The translations under genes and the position numbers were made by a program. Positions 14,464 to 29,914 of a DNA stretch of 32,000 bases are shown piece after piece. Numbering within the stretch: the first letter of the stretch is position 1; the number at the start of each line of letters is the position of its first letter. The notes below the pieces were generated by a model. That model saw only the letters and a program-made list of their open reading frames with translations. It had not been told where the DNA came from and searched no databases. Source of the DNA: Xanthomonas campestris pv. campestris str. ATCC 33913 (GTDB lineage Bacteria > Pseudomonadota > Gammaproteobacteria > Xanthomonadales > Xanthomonadaceae). Location: assembly GCF_000007145.1 (NCBI RefSeq), contig NC_003902.1, positions 60,001 to 92,000 on the forward strand. The letters run 5' to 3'.

Positions 14464-14603
14464 GAGCAGCTATCAAAACTACTGCGCAGCCGCCAGGCGG
14501 GCGCGGCCGGTGCTCGGAATCCTCATGTACCCACGTACACTCCGGTTCCTCCGCGCCGCCCGCACCCACCTGACGGCTGCTCGCTACGTTTTGTTAGCCG
14601 CTC
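14464..14603. repeat. ~140-nt imperfect palindromic (rod-like hairpin) element, ERIC/MITE-like or structured RNA
   Basis: The arms pair almost end to end (GAGCAGCTATCAAAAC... with ...GTTTTGTTAGCCGCTC, and GCAGCCGCCAGGCGGGCGCGG with CCGCGCCGCCCGCACCCACCTGACGGCTGC). The apex is TGTAC-ccac-GTACA. Four A-C mismatches on the + strand would be G-U pairs in a minus-strand transcript. Confidence 0.6.
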
Positions 14604-16819: not shown

Positions 16820-17333
16820 CTCGGCACGCCGCTGTGGCACGCCGGCCTTAAAACATCAGGCACGTAGCGCGACGCATGTCGCCAGATAACTGGCACAAAT
16901 AGCGCTTCGGTGGTCTTGGAGTATCTGCCGTATCGCGCGCTGCAACCAGCCTTGTGCGGCCAACATGATCGGCCTAGTTTCACCTCGCCACCACGGGGTG
17001 GCGAGGAGGTCACATACATGGCGACCAACGAGGACCACGTTTCGTTTGCCCGAGGCTGTTTGTACGGCAAGCCGCTGGACACCCGAGCCATGCTGGAGAG
17101 TTCTACTATGAATGATTGGCGGCCGTTCGAGTGTTCGTTGAGCGTCCGCTGCCAAGGATATGCCTTAGCAATAACCGGCCTAAGCTATTGCCGATGGCGT
17201 CATCGGTGTGATCCCGCATGAAGATGTCGCCTTGGACTGGCATGGTGCAAACATGGAAATCCAGCAAGTAGGCATCAGTGTCGTGCGTGAGGTATGGCCT
17301 GCTCGAGAGAATGGCTTAAGTGGGTCCGTATGC

Positions 17334-17361
17334 TTTGCTTTGTAGCTTGTTTGGCTATACT
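17334..17361 (+). promoter_or_regulatory. Candidate sigma70-type promoter of the ParA-like/HEPN cassette
   Basis: TTTGCT-N16-TATACT, ending 30 nt upstream of the GTG at 17392. No clear SD, so the leader is probably short. Confidence 0.3.
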
Positions 17362-17391
17362 CAGCAATCATCATCCCGCGTGGTAGCCAAA

Positions 17392-18435
17392 GTGGCCAAA
17401 TTAATTTGCTTATTTAATCATAAGGGTGGGGTGAGTAAGACCACTACGGCATTCAATCTGGGTTGGATGCTCTCATTAAAGGGTAAAAGAGTCATTTTAG
17501 CCGATTTTGATCCCCAATGTAATTTAACTGGAATGGTTGCAGGATTCCGTAAGTTGGATGATCTTGCTGGGCTTTACTCAGCCGCATGGCCAAATAACGT
17601 GCGCGACGCATTGTCCCCTGCATTCGAATCGCAACCTCGCAGAGTGGAAGGCGCGACTTGCTTTACTGTAAATGATCAAGTGCCTAACTTAATGTTGCTG
17701 GCTGGTCACATTGGCCTTGCGGAATATGAGACTACCCTTGGTGTCGCACAAGAATTAAGTGGCTCGCTGTTGCCTCTTCGAAATTTGCCGGGATCTCTTC
17801 GCTTCATGTTGGATGCCACTGCGGAAAAATACAACGCGGATTATGTTCTCATTGATATGAGTCCCAGTGTGGGCGCGCTTAATCAAAATCTTCTGACCAC
17901 TTGTGATTATTTCATTGTTCCATTGCAGCCTGACTACTTTTCTTCTATGGCGCTGAATTCTTTGTCAAATGTATTGCCTAGGTGGCAACGGTGGGCGAAA
18001 ACTGCCGCAGGCATCGAAACTTTGCTGACAGCCGACTATCCGTTTCCTTCTCCTCACGCTAAATTTATCGGTGCAATAGTCCAGAAATATAGGCCGCGGT
18101 TGGGCAAGGCCTCATCTGCTTTCCAGAGTTGGATTGATCGACTGAAGGTTGCGTTGGAAAAAGAACTGGTCCCTGCTTTAGCAAGCGTCGGAATGCTCGA
18201 TATAGCTCAGTACCAAGCGCGGGCAGGCTCGCCGCCTTGGCAGCCTATTATGGAAGTTGCTGACTTCAACAGTCTGATCGCTTTATCACAAGATCATCAA
18301 GTTCCGGTTTATGCTTTGACTGCCGAGCAGGTTGATCAGCAGGGGGCAGTCTGGACGCAAACCCAGAAGAATATGGGTGTTTTTGGCAAAGCGTTCGAGG
18401 AGTGTGCTGAGAAAGTCATCGCTCTTGCAATATGA
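17392..18435 (+). CDS. ParA/Soj/MinD-superfamily ATPase with a long C-terminal extension
   Basis: Deviant Walker A NHKGGVSKTT, A' motif ILADFDPQCN, Walker B YVLIDMSPS. Start set at GTG 17392, giving (M)AKLICLFNHKGG, the usual ParA N-terminus. The ORF-track start at 17320 and a GTG at 17380 are alternatives. At ~347 aa it is ~100 aa longer than typical ParA. Confidence 0.85.
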   Translation: MAKLICLFNHKGGVSKTTTAFNLGWMLSLKGKRVILADFDPQCNLTGMVAGFRKLDDLAGLYSAAWPNNVRDALSPAFESQPRRVEGATCFTVNDQVPNLMLLAGHIGLAEYETTLGVAQELSGSLLPLRNLPGSLRFMLDATAEKYNADYVLIDMSPSVGALNQNLLTTCDYFIVPLQPDYFSSMALNSLSNVLPRWQRWAKTAAGIETLLTADYPFPSPHAKFIGAIVQKYRPRLGKASSAFQSWIDRLKVALEKELVPALASVGMLDIAQYQARAGSPPWQPIMEVADFNSLIALSQDHQVPVYALTAEQVDQQGAVWTQTQKNMGVFGKAFEECAEKVIALAI

Positions 18436-19403
18436 CTCCCCTTCAGCTCTTCAACGAGGTATGGGTTCGCGCAGACCAACTGCGGCTTATGCACTCCTAT
18501 ATTGTAGGCGCAGATCTGGACTCAGTGTATCCAGACGAGGCACTGAGAGCTGAGTGGGTGATGCGCGTCAGTGCCCTCGATCTTTACATACACGAATTGA
18601 TATCAAATCGTTTAGTAAGGATTTTTCAGGGAGGTCTTCATTCGCCTAAAGGATTTAGTAATCTCCGGCTAAAAGCAGAAACTGCGATTCGGTTGGCCAC
18701 AGCGTCTCCTATGGACAGAGATGGGGGATTCGATCTGGATGTAAGAACGCAGCTTGCCTACTCCACATTCCAGATGCCTGATAAAATTGCTGATGGTATT
18801 CGACTTACTAGTGAAATCGAATTATGGGGTTCGTTAGCAAAGTATTTGTATCCGAACGAGCATCCCTCTAACTATAAAAATTTGACTAAGGGCCTTAAGG
18901 ATGATTTGACAGCCATAATCGAACGTCGAAACAAGATTGCTCATGAAGGCGATCTTCAACCAAGTATGCCCAGAGAAGTTTGGTTCATCGATGTAGCGCA
19001 ATTGGAGACCGTTACTTGCTTCTTATATAAACTCGTAAATGCTATAGAGGTAGTGGTCGGGGATTACGATCGCGCGCAAAGCGCAGCGCAATCTCTTGCC
19101 ACATGTGTGGAGGGGCTGCAAGCAGTGCCTACTTCGCCCGCCATTGCTATTCAGATACCTGAAATTCCAGCTACCAATATTGCCATTACTCCCCCCGTGG
19201 CTCAGGAATTTCATGCGGATGGAGTTTTGTGTGCATCCGAAACCTCAGAAGCCAATAGTCTACATATGCCAACACTAAGGCTTGCCGCGGACGATCTGAA
19301 TTTACATTCAAACTTTCGAGGGGGAGAGATCCCAACTACAGAAGTTCATTCCTCTAGCGATCCAATTGCAATACCTGAGGGACGATCCGAAACATCTGAC
19401 TAG
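18432..19403 (+). CDS. HEPN-superfamily (Rx4H) protein with a disordered C-terminal tail
   Basis: The ATG overlaps the ParA-like stop (ATGA at 18432-18435). Predicted helical N-terminal ~210 aa carries TAIIERRNKIAHEGD (R-x4-H). The last ~110 aa are Pro/Ser/Thr/Ala/Ile-rich. Confidence 0.65.
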   Translation: MTPLQLFNEVWVRADQLRLMHSYIVGADLDSVYPDEALRAEWVMRVSALDLYIHELISNRLVRIFQGGLHSPKGFSNLRLKAETAIRLATASPMDRDGGFDLDVRTQLAYSTFQMPDKIADGIRLTSEIELWGSLAKYLYPNEHPSNYKNLTKGLKDDLTAIIERRNKIAHEGDLQPSMPREVWFIDVAQLETVTCFLYKLVNAIEVVVGDYDRAQSAAQSLATCVEGLQAVPTSPAIAIQIPEIPATNIAITPPVAQEFHADGVLCASETSEANSLHMPTLRLAADDLNLHSNFRGGEIPTTEVHSSSDPIAIPEGRSETSD

Positions 19404-19424
19404 AATTAGATTGATACAGATATG

Positions 19425-19785
19425 GAAGCTAATGGGGTCAGGTTTAATTATCTGGCTCCATCGTCCTCATGGATGCAGCGACGATGTCTAGGCGGCCCAA
19501 CCTCTCCAAGCCGACACCGCTGCCACCCACCCGCAGCAGCAGACACCTGCTCCCATCCATTGCGCAGCCCCTTCATCGCTTGCTCGCCCACACGGGCGTA
19601 ACCCAGCTGTTTGGCTTCAGCGGTGCCCAGGCCAGGTAGCGCGACGATGGAATCTGACGGCGCGGGGCGCCCTTGGCGCTTTGCTTCGCTGCGCAGGGTC
19701 ATGTTCTCGCTGCCCTAGCAGTAACGCACCAATCCCGGATGTTGGTGCGCGCGCTACTGCTCCTAGCTGAAGGGCGTGGTTTCCC
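19425..19785. repeat. ~360-bp direct repeat, copy 1 (3' part and 3' flank of the small periplasmic-protein gene)
   Basis: Aligns by eye with 20691..21050 at high identity (starts GAAGCTAATGGGGTCAGG; long shared runs such as GACACCGCTGCCACCCACCCGCAGCAGCAGACACCTGCTCCCA). Ends are approximate. Confidence 0.8.
19448..19785 (-). pseudogene. Degraded paralogue of the 20768..21214 gene
   Basis: Translation parallels the intact copy (MTLRSEAKRQGRPAPSDSIVALPGLGTAEAKQLGYA...). There are three in-frame TAG codons where the intact copy has Cys, Tyr and Gln (TPFS*EQ*RAHQHPGLVRYC*G). The 5' part including the signal peptide is missing, and the normal stop is lost. Confidence 0.65.
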
Positions 19786-19829
19786 GAAGCACTGAGTTTG
19801 CTGAGCCGCCCGCTGCCGAGATGTAACCC

Positions 19830-20669
19830 TCAGAGCGAGCGGGCCTGCCCCAATTGCTGCTGCACAACATCCTGTTGCTGGCTTCTCTGTATTTCCTCAG
19901 CTTTCGCCTGCTGCAGTGCCTCCACCTGCGTTAGACGTTGCTCCGCCGGAACAGACAGGGCTTCCTGCGTCGGCATGTGCGCCCTATTCGCAGCTGGATC
20001 AGGGGAAGCATTGCTCGCGCGCCACATATGCAACACTTCGCCGCTGCCCAGATTTGGAGTAGGTGTGTTGAATGCAAACTTCAAGTCGTCTTTCGCAGTG
20101 AAGCCTTTCTCAGCTGCCATCAGCATCAAGCTGGCACTGAGCCGCTCACTATTGTCATCCCAGGGCTTTCGGGCCTGGCGGTCTAGCTCACTGACGCCTT
20201 GGCGTACTTTTTCAAGCAAGGCACTGTCGATGGACGGATGTTGACTGCGGCCGCTTCTTTCATCGTTTGGAGCAGCAAGATCAAGCGCCGGGCTGACATG
20301 TTGGTGCGTACCCTGCGTATGCTGGAATAGCCCACGTGTGGGTGGGTTCGTGCTCGTATCCCAGTATGGCTGAGGGTTAGCCGCGCCGGTTTGGGAAAGA
20401 TCAATCCCGTTATGTTCCAGCAACGGTTCCTTGAAGCGGAGGCGCTGCATATCAAGATGCATCTGGGGTGCAATGCCGCCCACCGGATGAGCGTGCGTCC
20501 TCTCGATATAGATGGCCCGACTGACTGCCCCTGCACCATAGTAGTTTGGGTAATCCGAGTCGCCATGAAATCCGATGCCGGTGGTCTGAGCTGTGGGTAG
20601 GCCTGGAGTTCCTCGCGGTTGTTTGTTGAAATAGTAAGCCTCTTGGGCGGCAACATTCTGCGGCGTCAT
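19830..20669 (-). CDS. XVIPCD-like protein lacking a recognisable toxin domain (N-terminally truncated X-Tfe paralogue)
   Basis: Shares with 21392..22840 the middle module (G..SDSDY.NYYG.G, LE.NG.DL) and a C-terminal domain (SERLSASLMLMAAEKGF... then a Gln-rich tail QQAKAEEIQRSQQQDVVQQQ). A TGA lies 14 codons upstream of the ATG, so no longer N-terminus is available. Confidence 0.6.
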   Translation of the reverse strand: MTPQNVAAQEAYYFNKQPRGTPGLPTAQTTGIGFHGDSDYPNYYGAGAVSRAIYIERTHAHPVGGIAPQMHLDMQRLRFKEPLLEHNGIDLSQTGAANPQPYWDTSTNPPTRGLFQHTQGTHQHVSPALDLAAPNDERSGRSQHPSIDSALLEKVRQGVSELDRQARKPWDDNSERLSASLMLMAAEKGFTAKDDLKFAFNTPTPNLGSGEVLHMWRASNASPDPAANRAHMPTQEALSVPAEQRLTQVEALQQAKAEEIQRSQQQDVVQQQLGQARSL

Positions 20670-20690: not shown

Positions 20691-21050
20691 GAAGCTAATG
20701 GGGTCAGGCTGACTTATCTGGCTTCAATCTTCCCGTGGATGAGGCGACGATGTCTAGGCCATCTGACCTATCTATCTTGACACCGCTGCCACCCACCCGC
20801 AGCAGCAGACACCTGCTCCCACCCATTGTGCAGCCGCTTCATCGCTTGCCCGCCCACACACGCGTAACCCAGTTGTTTGGCTTCGGCGGTGCCTAGGCCA
20901 GGTAGCGCGATGATGGAATCTGACGGCGCGGGGCGCCCTTGGCGTTGTGCTTCGTTGCGCAGGGTCATGTTTTCGATGCCCTGGCAGTAACGCACCATGC
21001 CCGGATGCGGGTGCGTGCGGTATTGCTCGCAATTGAACGGCGTGGTGTCA
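20691..21050. repeat. ~360-bp direct repeat, copy 2
   Basis: See 19425..19785. The offset between the two copies is 1266 bp. Confidence 0.8.
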
Positions 21051-21214
21051 CGCGCCATGGAGTTGTGCGGCTGCCGCACCGGCGGGATGTACAAGTGCGT
21101 GGCCTTACCCGTGGCCGAGCGCATGCTTTGTGCTGCTGCGCCGTATGCGCACGCAAGCAGGCACAGCGCGGCCAATGTCAGCGCGCCGCGGCGCGCTGTG
21201 GTGATCCTGTCCAT
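20768..21214 (-). CDS. Small Cys-containing exported protein (signal peptide, possibly a lipoprotein)
   Basis: 148 aa. Signal MDRITTARRGALTLAALCLLACAYGAAAQS. Lies immediately downstream of the effector-like gene, and a degraded paralogue sits downstream of the truncated effector paralogue. Confidence 0.6.
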   Translation of the reverse strand: MDRITTARRGALTLAALCLLACAYGAAAQSMRSATGKATHLYIPPVRQPHNSMARDTTPFNCEQYRTHPHPGMVRYCQGIENMTLRNEAQRQGRPAPSDSIIALPGLGTAEAKQLGYACVGGQAMKRLHNGWEQVSAAAGGWQRCQDR

Positions 21215-21391: not shown

Positions 21392-22840
21392 CTAAAGCGA
21401 GTGCAGCTGTCCACGCTGCTGCTGTTCCTGCGACCGCTGCTGATCCAACACCTGCTCTTGCACGCGTTCCTGCGCCAGCCGTTGGTTCACCGTCTCAAGC
21501 TGCGTAAAGCTTTCCTGCACGGGTCGTTGTGCAGCCTCCGCTGTCGGCATGTGTGTGCGTAGCTTTGCGGGATCTTGCGGGCCACCCTGCACCACGAATA
21601 CGTTCTGTGCGGCGGTCAGTTCTCTTGTCTTGTCACTGAGCAGCACATGGTCCACACGGGTCAAGCCATTGTCCTTGGCCAACGTCAGGAGACTTGCGGT
21701 CATACGCTCACTGGTCGCATCGAACGTGCGGCCGCTGGCCGCATCCAGCTGCTCCACCTTGCCGCGAATCTGCTGATGCATTGCGTGGTCCGGGTGGCCT
21801 GCATCTGCAGGCGTTAATAGCTGGCTTGATGGGGCAGGTGTTGCCATGGCTTGCGGGTTGATGTCACGCGCGCCCGTGTTCTTCAGCTGGACCATCCCGT
21901 AGCCGTCTTTGCCGAGGTCTACGATGTTGAACGTTTTTGCAGAACCCAGGTCCAGCCCATTGCGCTCCAGTTGCTCTGGCTCCAGCCCCAACGACTTGAG
22001 GTCGATGCGCACCTCCGGAGGCTGGCGATCATGGGCTAGATGATCGTAGTTTCTCGCAATATGGCTGATCGGGCCGACGCCGTAATAGTTGCGGTAGTCG
22101 GAGTCACTGTGCGGCCCAAGCGTGCCTCTGCTGTCGTAGAAGCACTGCTCTACAGCACGCGTCAGCGGCTTTCCACGCGCTTGGTCGTGTGTGGTCAGCG
22201 CCTCATAGCTAAGGCCCCGGGCAAACGCTGGGGGTGTCACATGCTTGTCAACGCAGCGGGTGACAGAGCGGTCCAACAGCATGCCTTCGGCATCCTCTGC
22301 AGATACGCCAGGGTTTTCATGCTTGATACGGCTGTTGAGTGCACGCAAGGCCGAGATCTCTGCTAATGCTTCGTCCTGCCGTGTCTTGTCCAGATATGCA
22401 CGGGTCGGCTCTGTCAGATCTACCTGACTTTCGCGCTGAGAGTGCGCGTCCTGCATCTTCTCGCCCATGGTCCTGCCGAACTCCGCCAACGCATTGGCTC
22501 GATGTTCTGCCAAAACACCATGCATCGTCTCGTGGCCCAGTACTTCTGTCAGGTGATCGATGCGTGCGCGGCCCTGCCAATCCTGAAAGAGCGACCCACT
22601 GATGTTGAGCGTGCCTGCCTTTCCATCCTTGCCATCCTGAAAGTGACCAGCATTGTTTTGGTCATGGGAGACAGCGATAGCACCAATCTGCCCTTTCTCG
22701 ATGGCGTTCCCCAATAGGTTGGACAGATATGGCGATTCGGAGATGGCCTGCCGGATGGAAGCTTCAGCCTCCTTGGGAAGGCTGGGGTCTTTCCTCATCT
22801 GCAAGAGCAGGGGCTCAATTCTTGGATCAACTGGCGTCAC
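21392..22840 (-). CDS. Candidate Xanthomonadales T4SS effector (X-Tfe-like): N-terminal HExxH metallopeptidase-like domain plus C-terminal XVIPCD-like domain
   Basis: HExxH in HLTEVLGHETMHGV. The C-terminal ~120 aa (SERMTASLLTLAKDNGLTRVDHVLLSDKTRELTAAQNVFVVQGGPQDP...MPTAEAAQRPVQES) is followed by a Gln-rich tail (QEQVLDQQRSQEQQQRGQ). This matches my recollection of the VirD4-interacting XVIPCD signal. The GTG overlaps the upstream lipoprotein stop (GTGA). Confidence 0.7.
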   Translation of the reverse strand: MTPVDPRIEPLLLQMRKDPSLPKEAEASIRQAISESPYLSNLLGNAIEKGQIGAIAVSHDQNNAGHFQDGKDGKAGTLNISGSLFQDWQGRARIDHLTEVLGHETMHGVLAEHRANALAEFGRTMGEKMQDAHSQRESQVDLTEPTRAYLDKTRQDEALAEISALRALNSRIKHENPGVSAEDAEGMLLDRSVTRCVDKHVTPPAFARGLSYEALTTHDQARGKPLTRAVEQCFYDSRGTLGPHSDSDYRNYYGVGPISHIARNYDHLAHDRQPPEVRIDLKSLGLEPEQLERNGLDLGSAKTFNIVDLGKDGYGMVQLKNTGARDINPQAMATPAPSSQLLTPADAGHPDHAMHQQIRGKVEQLDAASGRTFDATSERMTASLLTLAKDNGLTRVDHVLLSDKTRELTAAQNVFVVQGGPQDPAKLRTHMPTAEAAQRPVQESFTQLETVNQRLAQERVQEQVLDQQRSQEQQQRGQLHSL

Positions 22841-23835: not shown

Positions 23836-23996
23836 GCCGCTCTCCTTGCCGTGAGGCAGCTCCCGCTGCACAACGCAGCGGGATGCCGGGAGGCTAGAAA
23901 CCGCACACAGCCGGCGGGCTTATTCCCCTTGCGGGTGTTGTATTCGCCGCCCTCCCGGCGCAGGAACGCCGAGCCATGCCCGATCTTGCGACCGGA

Positions 23997-29638: not shown

Positions 29639-29914
29639 ACCTGGCGCCACAGCGACTGCTGCACGATCGATGCGGCGGTGCAGCGATGAGCGGGCTGTCT
29701 TCAGGTTGACCGCTGCGCTGCACGCGGTGCTAACGGGGACATCGCGACTATGCGTCACCAGCTGTGCAGCCCTAGAGCATCTAGGCAGCTTAAAGGGTGC
29801 AGGCATCCGCAGTTGGACCACTTTCTTCGACAGACCCCGTGCAGGCATGGAGGTCTGTCGCGCCGTGTGTGGCGTTTGCTGGATCAGGCGGTGTCGGTGC
29901 GGTTTGCCTTTTTC

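Follow-up and report, generated by a model that had tools for sequence, protein, structure and literature searches.

A mobile two-gene cassette of Xanthomonas campestris that couples the gene of a ParA/Soj-type ATPase to that of a predicted HEPN protein

HEPN ribonucleases (RNases) are core prokaryotic immune effectors, represented by Cas13, Csm6, ApeA and HepT, and the central mechanistic question for these enzymes is how each is kept off and switched on. Their active site is generally formed from two R-x4-6-H motifs that meet across a dimer, and activity is dimer-dependent in RNase L, Csm6 and HepT. Here, we analyze a 2.2-kb cassette in which the gene of a ParA/Soj-fold ATPase is followed by that of a predicted HEPN protein. 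The cassette lies in a 32,000-nt window of Xanthomonas campestris pv. campestris str. ATCC 33913 (NC_003902.1, forward-strand positions 60,001 to 92,000). This window is the whole stretch of DNA that was analyzed, and coordinates given without a locus number (L) refer to it. The uncharacterised ATPase-HEPN module is real, widespread and mobile; its architecture was foreseen in silico in 2013.

In the type VII toxin-antitoxin (TA) system HepT-MntA, the toxin is controlled by a nucleotide-using enzyme and its R-x4-H motif is essential. The present pair has the same layout, a two-gene operon with the regulator placed 5' of a putative HEPN RNase toxin. However, the partner is a ParA/Soj P-loop ATPase rather than a minimal nucleotidyltransferase (MNT), there is no evidence of covalent modification in the present pair, and the HepT structure (7ae8) is matched by the HEPN model with a Foldseek E-value of only 2.7. 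ApeA and the Abi-type HEPN proteins (AbiD/F Abi_2, AbiU2 and RnlA) also resemble the HEPN partner, as stand-alone HEPN RNase effectors that are activated by infection. They differ in that sensing is carried out by fused N-terminal domains or by other partners; to our knowledge, no ApeA/Abi-type HEPN system uses a ParA-type ATPase.

In Soj/MinD-family ATPases, a signature lysine mediates the change from a monomer to an ATP-sandwich dimer and back. The ATPase of the cassette shares the fold and the deviant Walker A, A' and B set of the Soj/ParA partition ATPases and DIP2308 (PDB 3pg5), as well as the extra length of DIP2308, an uncharacterised protein of 361 aa. It differs from Soj/ParA in its low identity to Soj (20–23%), in family-specific invariant blocks (GHIGLAEYETTLG..ELSGSLL.LRNLPG, ADYPFP, QKYRPR.GK and EVADFNSLIA.SQ), in having no ParB or parS, and in having a HEPN protein as its obligate partner.

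The pairing of a HEPN protein of the MAE_18760 family with a ParA/Soj-like ATPase, termed a "less common gene dyad", was postulated to be a TA system with the ATPase as the antitoxin (Anantharaman, Makarova, Burroughs, Koonin and Aravind 2013, Biol Direct 8:15; PMC3710099), and a preliminary description of our locus, made from the sequence alone, was correct in stating that some HEPN families neighbour ParA/Soj genes. The present pair has the same composition, with a ParA/Soj-like SIMIBI ATPase gene and a stand-alone R-x4-6-H HEPN gene in one operon, and the same proposed logic of an RNase toxin with an NTPase partner. However, its HEPN protein is assigned to PF18735 (HEPN_RiboL-PSP) and reaches PF18737 (MAE_28990/18760) only below threshold, and Table 1 of the 2013 study links RiboL-PSP-HEPN to ParB, not ParA. 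Since the HEPN family differs, we treat the present pair as a variant, not a member, of the 2013 dyad. That study contains no census, co-evolution analysis, mobility analysis or experiment (PMC3710099).

The ATPase and its predicted HEPN partner

Gene 1 (17392..18435, +) begins with GTG and encodes 347 aa; gene 2 (18432..19403, +) encodes 323 aa. The ATGA overlap of the two open reading frames (ORFs), claimed earlier, is present in the sequence at 18432..18435 (+), where the HEPN start codon and the ATPase stop codon are interlocked.

The product of gene 1 matches the Pfam families AAA_31 (E=1.8e-30) and CbiA (E=3.7e-13), both above threshold, and shares 100% identity with a "ParA family protein" on record for X. 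campestris pv. campestris. Its AlphaFold2 (AF2) model has a predicted TM-score (pTM) of 0.87, and the top Foldseek matches of this model are Soj, pNOB8 ParA (bound to non-specific DNA) and 3pg5, each with a probability of 1.00 (E 1e-10, target TM-scores 0.60–0.76). In agreement with the Pfam matches, the ParA/Soj/MinD motifs pointed out in the preliminary description (NHKGGVSKTT, DFDPQCN and YVLIDMSPS) are present, and the protein is indeed longer than an ordinary ParA, by ∼90 aa relative to Soj. The deviant Walker A motif (K11-G-G-V-S-K16-T-T; 17422..17445, +) contains both the signature lysine and the P-loop lysine. Residues K11, G12, G13, K16, T17, T18, D38/D40 (Walker A') and D155 (Walker B) are invariant in all 113 HEPN-linked ATPases, and the dN/dS ratio of gene 1 between X. 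campestris and X. axonopodis is 0.015. Both the sequence and the predicted model identify the gene 1 product as an ATPase that has the ParA/Soj fold and whose Walker motifs are intact.

Gene 2 is predicted by Pfam and AF2 to encode an all-helical domain of the HEPN_RiboL-PSP type (aa 1–229; 18432..19118, +), followed by a disordered, low-complexity C-terminal extension (aa ∼230–323, with the stop codon at the end of 19119..19403, +). The helical domain is modeled with pLDDT >90 and the tail with pLDDT <55, so that the earlier delineation of a helical domain with a disordered tail stands. The R-x4-H signature noticed at the same time is found in the segment RRNKIAHEGD; its predicted catalytic motif, R166-N-K-I-A-H171, is located at 18927..18944 (+). 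Its R166 and H171, together with R39, D50, H54, W132, R165 and D174, are invariant in 113/113 HEPN partners, even at ∼28% HEPN identity.

The gene 2 protein of the window matches PF18735 with E=1.5e-5 and 25.4 bits (gathering threshold 28.4). The only Pfam families it matches belong to the HEPN clan, with PF18737 weaker than PF18735. All 37 aligned relatives match PF18735 (best E 1.1e-10), and this family is always the best match; the MAE_28990/18760-like PF18737 is reached by seven of the 37, at a sub-threshold 14–18 bits (cut-off 26.8). Divergent partners of more distant ATPases score higher: ten of ten are above the PF18735 threshold (31–65 bits) over nearly the whole model, with weak secondary matches to the Abi_2, AbiU2 and Apea HEPN families. 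The protein of the window is linked to PF18735-passing relatives at E ∼1e-50. Because ten divergent ATPase-linked partners pass the threshold, the PF18735 assignment of the family is, as far as profiles can establish it, sound, with the window copy as a divergent member. In PHROGs, gene 2 matches phrog_13503, which is of "unknown function".

The tail and the domain evolve at different rates between X. campestris and X. axonopodis, with a dN/dS of 0.12 for the domain and a near-neutral 0.77 over aa 216–323. The tail is missing from the majority of the family, whose members are ∼208 aa long. The C-terminal tail was rejected as a functional feature of the family, based on this ratio and its lineage-specific occurrence. 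A deep profile search collected 1,319 HEPN clusters at 50% identity, nearly all of them stand-alone proteins of ∼200 aa; no ATPase-HEPN fusion was found among the best 150 of the 1,319 clusters.

Public gene calls begin the HEPN gene late, giving 304, 280 or 292 aa instead of 323. Examples are the window, where 18432–18488 is left out, L214–L219 (7098–8012) and L001 (8001–8879). The late start drops a family-conserved N-terminal helix (P3, F7, W11 and R13) and masks the ATGA coupling. More distant HEPN relatives (26–31% identity) from Phycisphaerales, Verrucomicrobia and Kitasatospora (L045, L048 and L050) have no ATPase neighbour; thus, the wider PF18735 family also occurs outside the HEPN-ATPase dyad.

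Pairing and co-inheritance of the two genes

Pairing was examined from both sides. Among 33 reference genomes with a full-length HEPN homologue, a full-length ATPase gene lies directly upstream in 30, ending −4 to +25 nt from the HEPN start; the upstream ATPase is cut by a contig end in one genome and carries a 5' deletion in the remaining two (L015 and L039). At nearly all loci, the two genes are joined by an ATGA overlap or a gap of 1–9 nt (−4 to +9 nt). When the search is seeded with the ATPase, a HEPN-family ORF follows every ATPase of at least 50% identity with enough downstream DNA (hidden Markov model E 1e-37 to 1e-105), with two exceptions, both degraded copies. Between 35% and 50% ATPase identity, the clade splits: some members are accompanied by a HEPN gene, and in a sister group carried by prophages its place is taken by a 55-aa ORF or is vacant. 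More than 100 unrelated loci carry the pair, and the pairwise identities of the ATPase and the HEPN protein are correlated (Pearson r = 0.90, 113 unique pairs). The pairing is close to obligate in both directions, and the pair is a conserved, co-inherited two-gene unit; the co-occurrence elsewhere on which the preliminary description depended is borne out by both seeded searches and by the correlation.

Both genes are under purifying selection, with median dN/dS values of ∼0.05 for the ATPase and ∼0.08 for the HEPN protein, values that are rough as synonymous sites are saturated; the HEPN value is the higher in 53 of 55 close pairs. Across HEPN-linked loci, the ATPase retains 64–75% identity vs 40–47% for the HEPN protein.

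These rates bear on a classical TA (addiction) function, in which the ATPase would be an antitoxin that neutralises the HEPN protein by nucleotide-dependent binding or covalent modification (type VII-like), and the module would stabilise its element rather than defend against phages. Such a function was predicted in the 2013 study (Anantharaman 2013), and the translationally coupled arrangement, with the regulator gene first and the toxin second, is that of MNT-HEPN modules; carriage by plasmids and prophages and the presence of other TA genes near some loci (Phd/ParE in L001 and HicA in L163) also speak for it. However, an antitoxin that exceeds its toxin in both size and conservation, as the ATPase would, is unusual, and neither a conserved operator nor a DNA-binding domain that could serve autoregulation is seen. 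Moreover, the fold of the ATPase matches the DNA-segregation ParA/Soj ATPases and not BY-kinases, and there is nothing to stabilise in the case of the many copies that stand alone as 2-kb islets in chromosomes. On balance, we consider simple addiction rather unlikely.

The sister ATPase clade (L182–L192, e.g. L185 6001–7244; ∼35% identity, 358 aa) is found on prophage contigs, right after the gene of a CI-type S24/HTH repressor, with the 55-aa ORF (1-nt overlap) in place of the HEPN gene. In L163, a HicA toxin gene is located just downstream. This clade may represent a related module with another partner. A further locus, L005, was rejected as a case of a broken ATPase beside an intact HEPN gene, as it proved to be a gene-calling artefact.

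Boundaries, carriers and surroundings of the cassette

The whole mobile cassette, consisting of a leader, the ATPase gene and the HEPN gene, was delimited by blastn and GC content to 17253..19420 (+). Besides matches of flanking genes, this is the sole stretch in common with the X. axonopodis copy (blastn, 85%); the boundaries proposed in the preliminary description (17100–19450) were too wide, as the unit common to this other Xanthomonas species is 17253–19420. Its GC content is 47.3%, compared to 66.0% in the rest of the window, a contrast of ∼19 points with a sharp right edge at ∼19445. The described contrast with the flanks is therefore real, but an interior of 35–40% is not, since only five of 34 60-nt lines are at or below 40%.

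The upstream leader (17253..17391, +) is kept in both Xanthomonas copies, whereas the upstream DNA of other loci is not conserved, and no conserved operator was found across 74 distinct upstream regions. A −10-like element (GGTACAAT, TAGACT or TATAAT) is present 35–45 nt before the start at many loci; a consensus promoter scan flagged nothing in the leader. The leader probably carries the cassette's own promoter.

The low GC content is not peculiar to Xanthomonas: the cassette is below its flanks in 36 of 38 loci, with a mean difference of 11.6 points. The pair occurs on 14 IMG/VR contigs, among CI-like repressors, terminases, portal and head genes, and integrases. Filamentous phages of the Pf type and conjugative plasmids of B. 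glumae carry versions of ∼30% identity; the plasmid copies are annotated as "AAA family ATPase" and "HEPN domain-containing protein". The Pf phages have the module in their accessory region, next to the integrase or att site, as at the accessory end of Pf5 of P. aeruginosa PA14 (AY324828.1; L211 2516–3971), where the ATPase is annotated as "similar to Soj (ParA)" and the HEPN ORF is unannotated. Both genes are intact in the related phage WX-TY (L212). The Pf5 copy itself looks decayed, its ATPase being annotated without the Walker A N-terminus and its HEPN ORF being frameshifted right after RRNSIVHE. Many other copies are stand-alone 2-kb chromosomal islets between housekeeping genes. The hosts of the module come from Proteobacteria, Acidobacteria and other groups. 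The pair travels as one mobile unit, and the horizontal acquisition suggested earlier is supported by the low GC content and by the range of carriers, which comprises prophages, filamentous phages, plasmids and islets.

To describe the surroundings, 119 neighbouring ORFs from 30 loci were surveyed. No conserved third gene was found among them. Unrelated housekeeping genes make up most of the flanks; there are also some integrases, a Mu-like gene and a transposase, as well as scattered defence genes (Hma, MADS, Shedu SduA, a TIR effector and SoFic).

This distribution is relevant to two further explanations. The first is that the pair is a regulatory RNase module for the mobile element's own life cycle, acting on lysogeny or replication transcripts, and is neither a toxin nor an immunity device. 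Such a role would fit viral contigs, where the module and the HEPN-less sister ATPase often adjoin CI-type repressors and other regulators, and the position of the Pf-phage copies close to the integrase or att site, within the accessory region. It would not explain why an intact cassette under purifying selection is also kept outside phages, as an islet isolated among housekeeping genes, and the unrelated nature of the carriers (tailed phages, filamentous phages and plasmids) argues for an element-independent function. We regard a life-cycle regulator as improbable.

The second explanation is a partition or positioning system, in which a true ParA would segregate or position the element or a cargo and the HEPN-like protein would be a non-catalytic adaptor that replaces ParB. 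The true ParA/Soj fold with its intact ATP-dimer signature lysine, the labeling of relatives as partition proteins by PHROGs and NCBIfam, and the occurrence of the module on plasmids and episomally replicating Pf phages are all compatible with this idea. However, NCBIfam partition equivalogs score gene 1 far below their cut-offs, e.g. 60 bits vs 180. No parB was found among the genes of the window or the 119 surveyed neighbours, no replication gene near the cassette, no centromere-like repeat arrays in the window, and no conserved upstream DNA across the loci. These scans agree with the preliminary description, which had seen no parB, replication gene or centromere-like array nearby. The pair is not a parAB locus, as it has neither parB nor a centromere, and the HEPN gene is the sole conserved partner of the ATPase gene. 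The copies are mostly chromosomal, in integrated prophages or in 2-kb islets without a replicon, and the invariance of the R-x4-H motif and of R39, D50 and H54 in the partners suggests an enzyme rather than an adaptor. Given the lack of ParB and a centromere, the location of most copies in chromosomal islets and the enzyme-like invariance of residues in the partner, a role of the module in partition is unlikely, and the specific scheme with a HEPN adaptor appears very remote.

In the window, the cassette is preceded by the genes of a flavodoxin-like reductase and an HxlR regulator. On its 3' side are two genes for X-Tfe effectors of the type IV secretion system (19830–20669 and 21392–22840), which contain the XVIPCD domain, along with small partner ORFs; the cassette is thus situated beside an interbacterial-competition locus, as had been proposed. 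Just 3' of the cassette, 19448–19702 (−; DNA 19514–19786) is a 3' partial duplicate of a 148-aa gene that accompanies the X-Tfe effectors and whose full copy is at 20768–21214 (−). X. axonopodis has this partner gene at full length in the equivalent place. The partial duplicate is presumably an immunity-gene remnant.

Three Xanthomonas small RNAs (sRNAs) of Rfam are present in the window, sX9 at 14525–14599 (+), sRNA-Xcc1 at 23877–23959 (−), just past the X-Tfe gene cluster, and sX2 at 29757–29861 (+); no Rfam element was found inside the cassette. There is no tRNA, tRNA integration site or att-like repeat near the cassette, and scans for flanking att repeats, inverted repeats, centromere arrays, terminators and promoters gave matches at chance level only.

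The cassette is always at the same locus in X. campestris strains, and the X. axonopodis copy (L001) is in the syntenic place with other upstream genes. A Fic-domain gene is located a few kb upstream in several X. campestris strains (L214, L215, L218 and L220 103–1251, −), and a Phd/ParE TA pair upstream in X. axonopodis (L001 3150–3694). With these further conflict genes, the region around the cassette in Xanthomonas looks like a variable accessory region.

Proposed function and significance

The ATPase-HEPN pair is probably a toxin or anti-phage module. Most of what the preliminary description observed is confirmed, and the interpretation given there is plausible, with partial support. The reading that we favour, and hold to be fairly likely, is a self-contained mobile two-gene conflict module with a HEPN-type RNase effector (toxin) gated by the ParA/Soj-type ATPase. 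As the pair is obligate, co-evolving and coupled, with both catalytic sets invariant, the simplest reading is that the nucleotide state of the ATPase gates the HEPN active site, either its assembly or the access to it, and that the RNase would arrest growth. Both proteins would be made together from a coupled transcript and form a complex. The ATPase would cycle between a monomer and an ATP-sandwich dimer, and this cycle would decide if an active site can be built from the R-x4-H motifs of two HEPN subunits. The RNase would be held off in the resting cell, and a perturbation would release or assemble active RNase, leading to translation arrest. The trigger could be a phage protein, a phage that attacks the nucleoid or the ATP pool, or the element being lost. 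Abortive infection or superinfection exclusion for the benefit of the carrier prophage or plasmid, or post-segregational killing, may follow. In this scheme, we infer complex formation, RNase activity, the direction of control (the ATPase as antitoxin or as activator) and the trigger.

Several observations weigh against such a conflict module. The gene 2 protein of the window is itself below the PF18735 cut-off of Pfam. In Foldseek, its confident model has no significant match in PDB or BFVD; what came up were generic helical bundles and G-protein-coupled receptors, and the best HEPN structure was the non-significant 7ae8. Searching PDB sequences with profiles made from alignments of 37 and 47 members gave nothing significant either; the only alignment, also non-significant, places VRNKITH of the ApeA protein "Ec1Ap" (9hxn) against the RRNKIaHE block of the family. 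As neither kind of search gave a significant match, the HEPN fold is without independent confirmation, and of the HEPN identity put forward in the preliminary description the sequence profile holds, whereas the structural check does not support it.

Other points concern the evolution of the pair and its control. The ATPase is more conserved than the HEPN protein, which reverses the rates typical of antitoxins and toxins and is unlike fast-evolving phage sensors. In addition, an intact HEPN gene is found beside a 5'-deleted ATPase in two lineages (L015 and L002/L003/L039). In a Rhizobacter metagenome-assembled genome (L015 4800–6630), the ATPase is reduced to its last ∼45 codons and the HEPN ORF is fully intact; in Paraburkholderia tropica (L002/L039 4900–6630, and L003), the first ∼47 ATPase codons, including the P-loop, are gone in two separate assemblies. 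These two deletions are independent, and they indicate that the HEPN gene is tolerated without a working ATPase. However, they leave the direction of control undecided because the promoter is removed too.

Finally, the association with defence genes among the 119 neighbours is modest and has no baseline for comparison. PADLOC-DB v2.0.0 has no model for either protein, and the HEPN protein has no match in it. Membership of the ATPase in PDC-M28B was rejected, as the PADLOC match is limited to 37 residues at the P-loop (E 3.7e-5). No experiment on the module or its relatives was found in the full-text literature, including papers on Pf-phage accessory genes; these searches agree with the earlier statement that no experimentally characterised system of this architecture is known.

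A more specific form of the conflict module, tentative and in our view somewhat doubtful, is that the ATPase is not an antitoxin but the sensor/switch of a new abortive-infection class. Its nucleoid-associated, ATP-dependent dimer would keep watch on a conserved state of the host, for instance the integrity of chromosomal DNA or the ATP level, and would license the HEPN RNase once a phage disturbs it. Such a role would account for the uniformity of the ATPase across phyla (64–75% identity) alongside a drifting effector. If true, this would be the first immune sensor derived from the ParA partition machinery.

The existence of such a module would not greatly surprise a specialist; the ParA-type switch and the unusually constrained ATPase make it a clean candidate. 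The proposed ParA/Soj ATP switch of a HEPN protein is a type of regulator for which no experimental study was found, and the module is carried by elements of medical and agricultural relevance: P. aeruginosa Pf prophages, plasmids of B. glumae and the chromosomes of Xanthomonas. In public records, the pair is labeled "ParA family protein" and "hypothetical protein", with the HEPN start mis-called in Xanthomonas. With its small size and clear point-mutant predictions, the 2.2-kb cassette is easily testable. If it turned out to be an ordinary TA pair, a thirteen-year-old prediction would be confirmed; if the proposed function is borne out, the module would represent a new regulatory principle for HEPN RNases, as well as a new defence or TA family.

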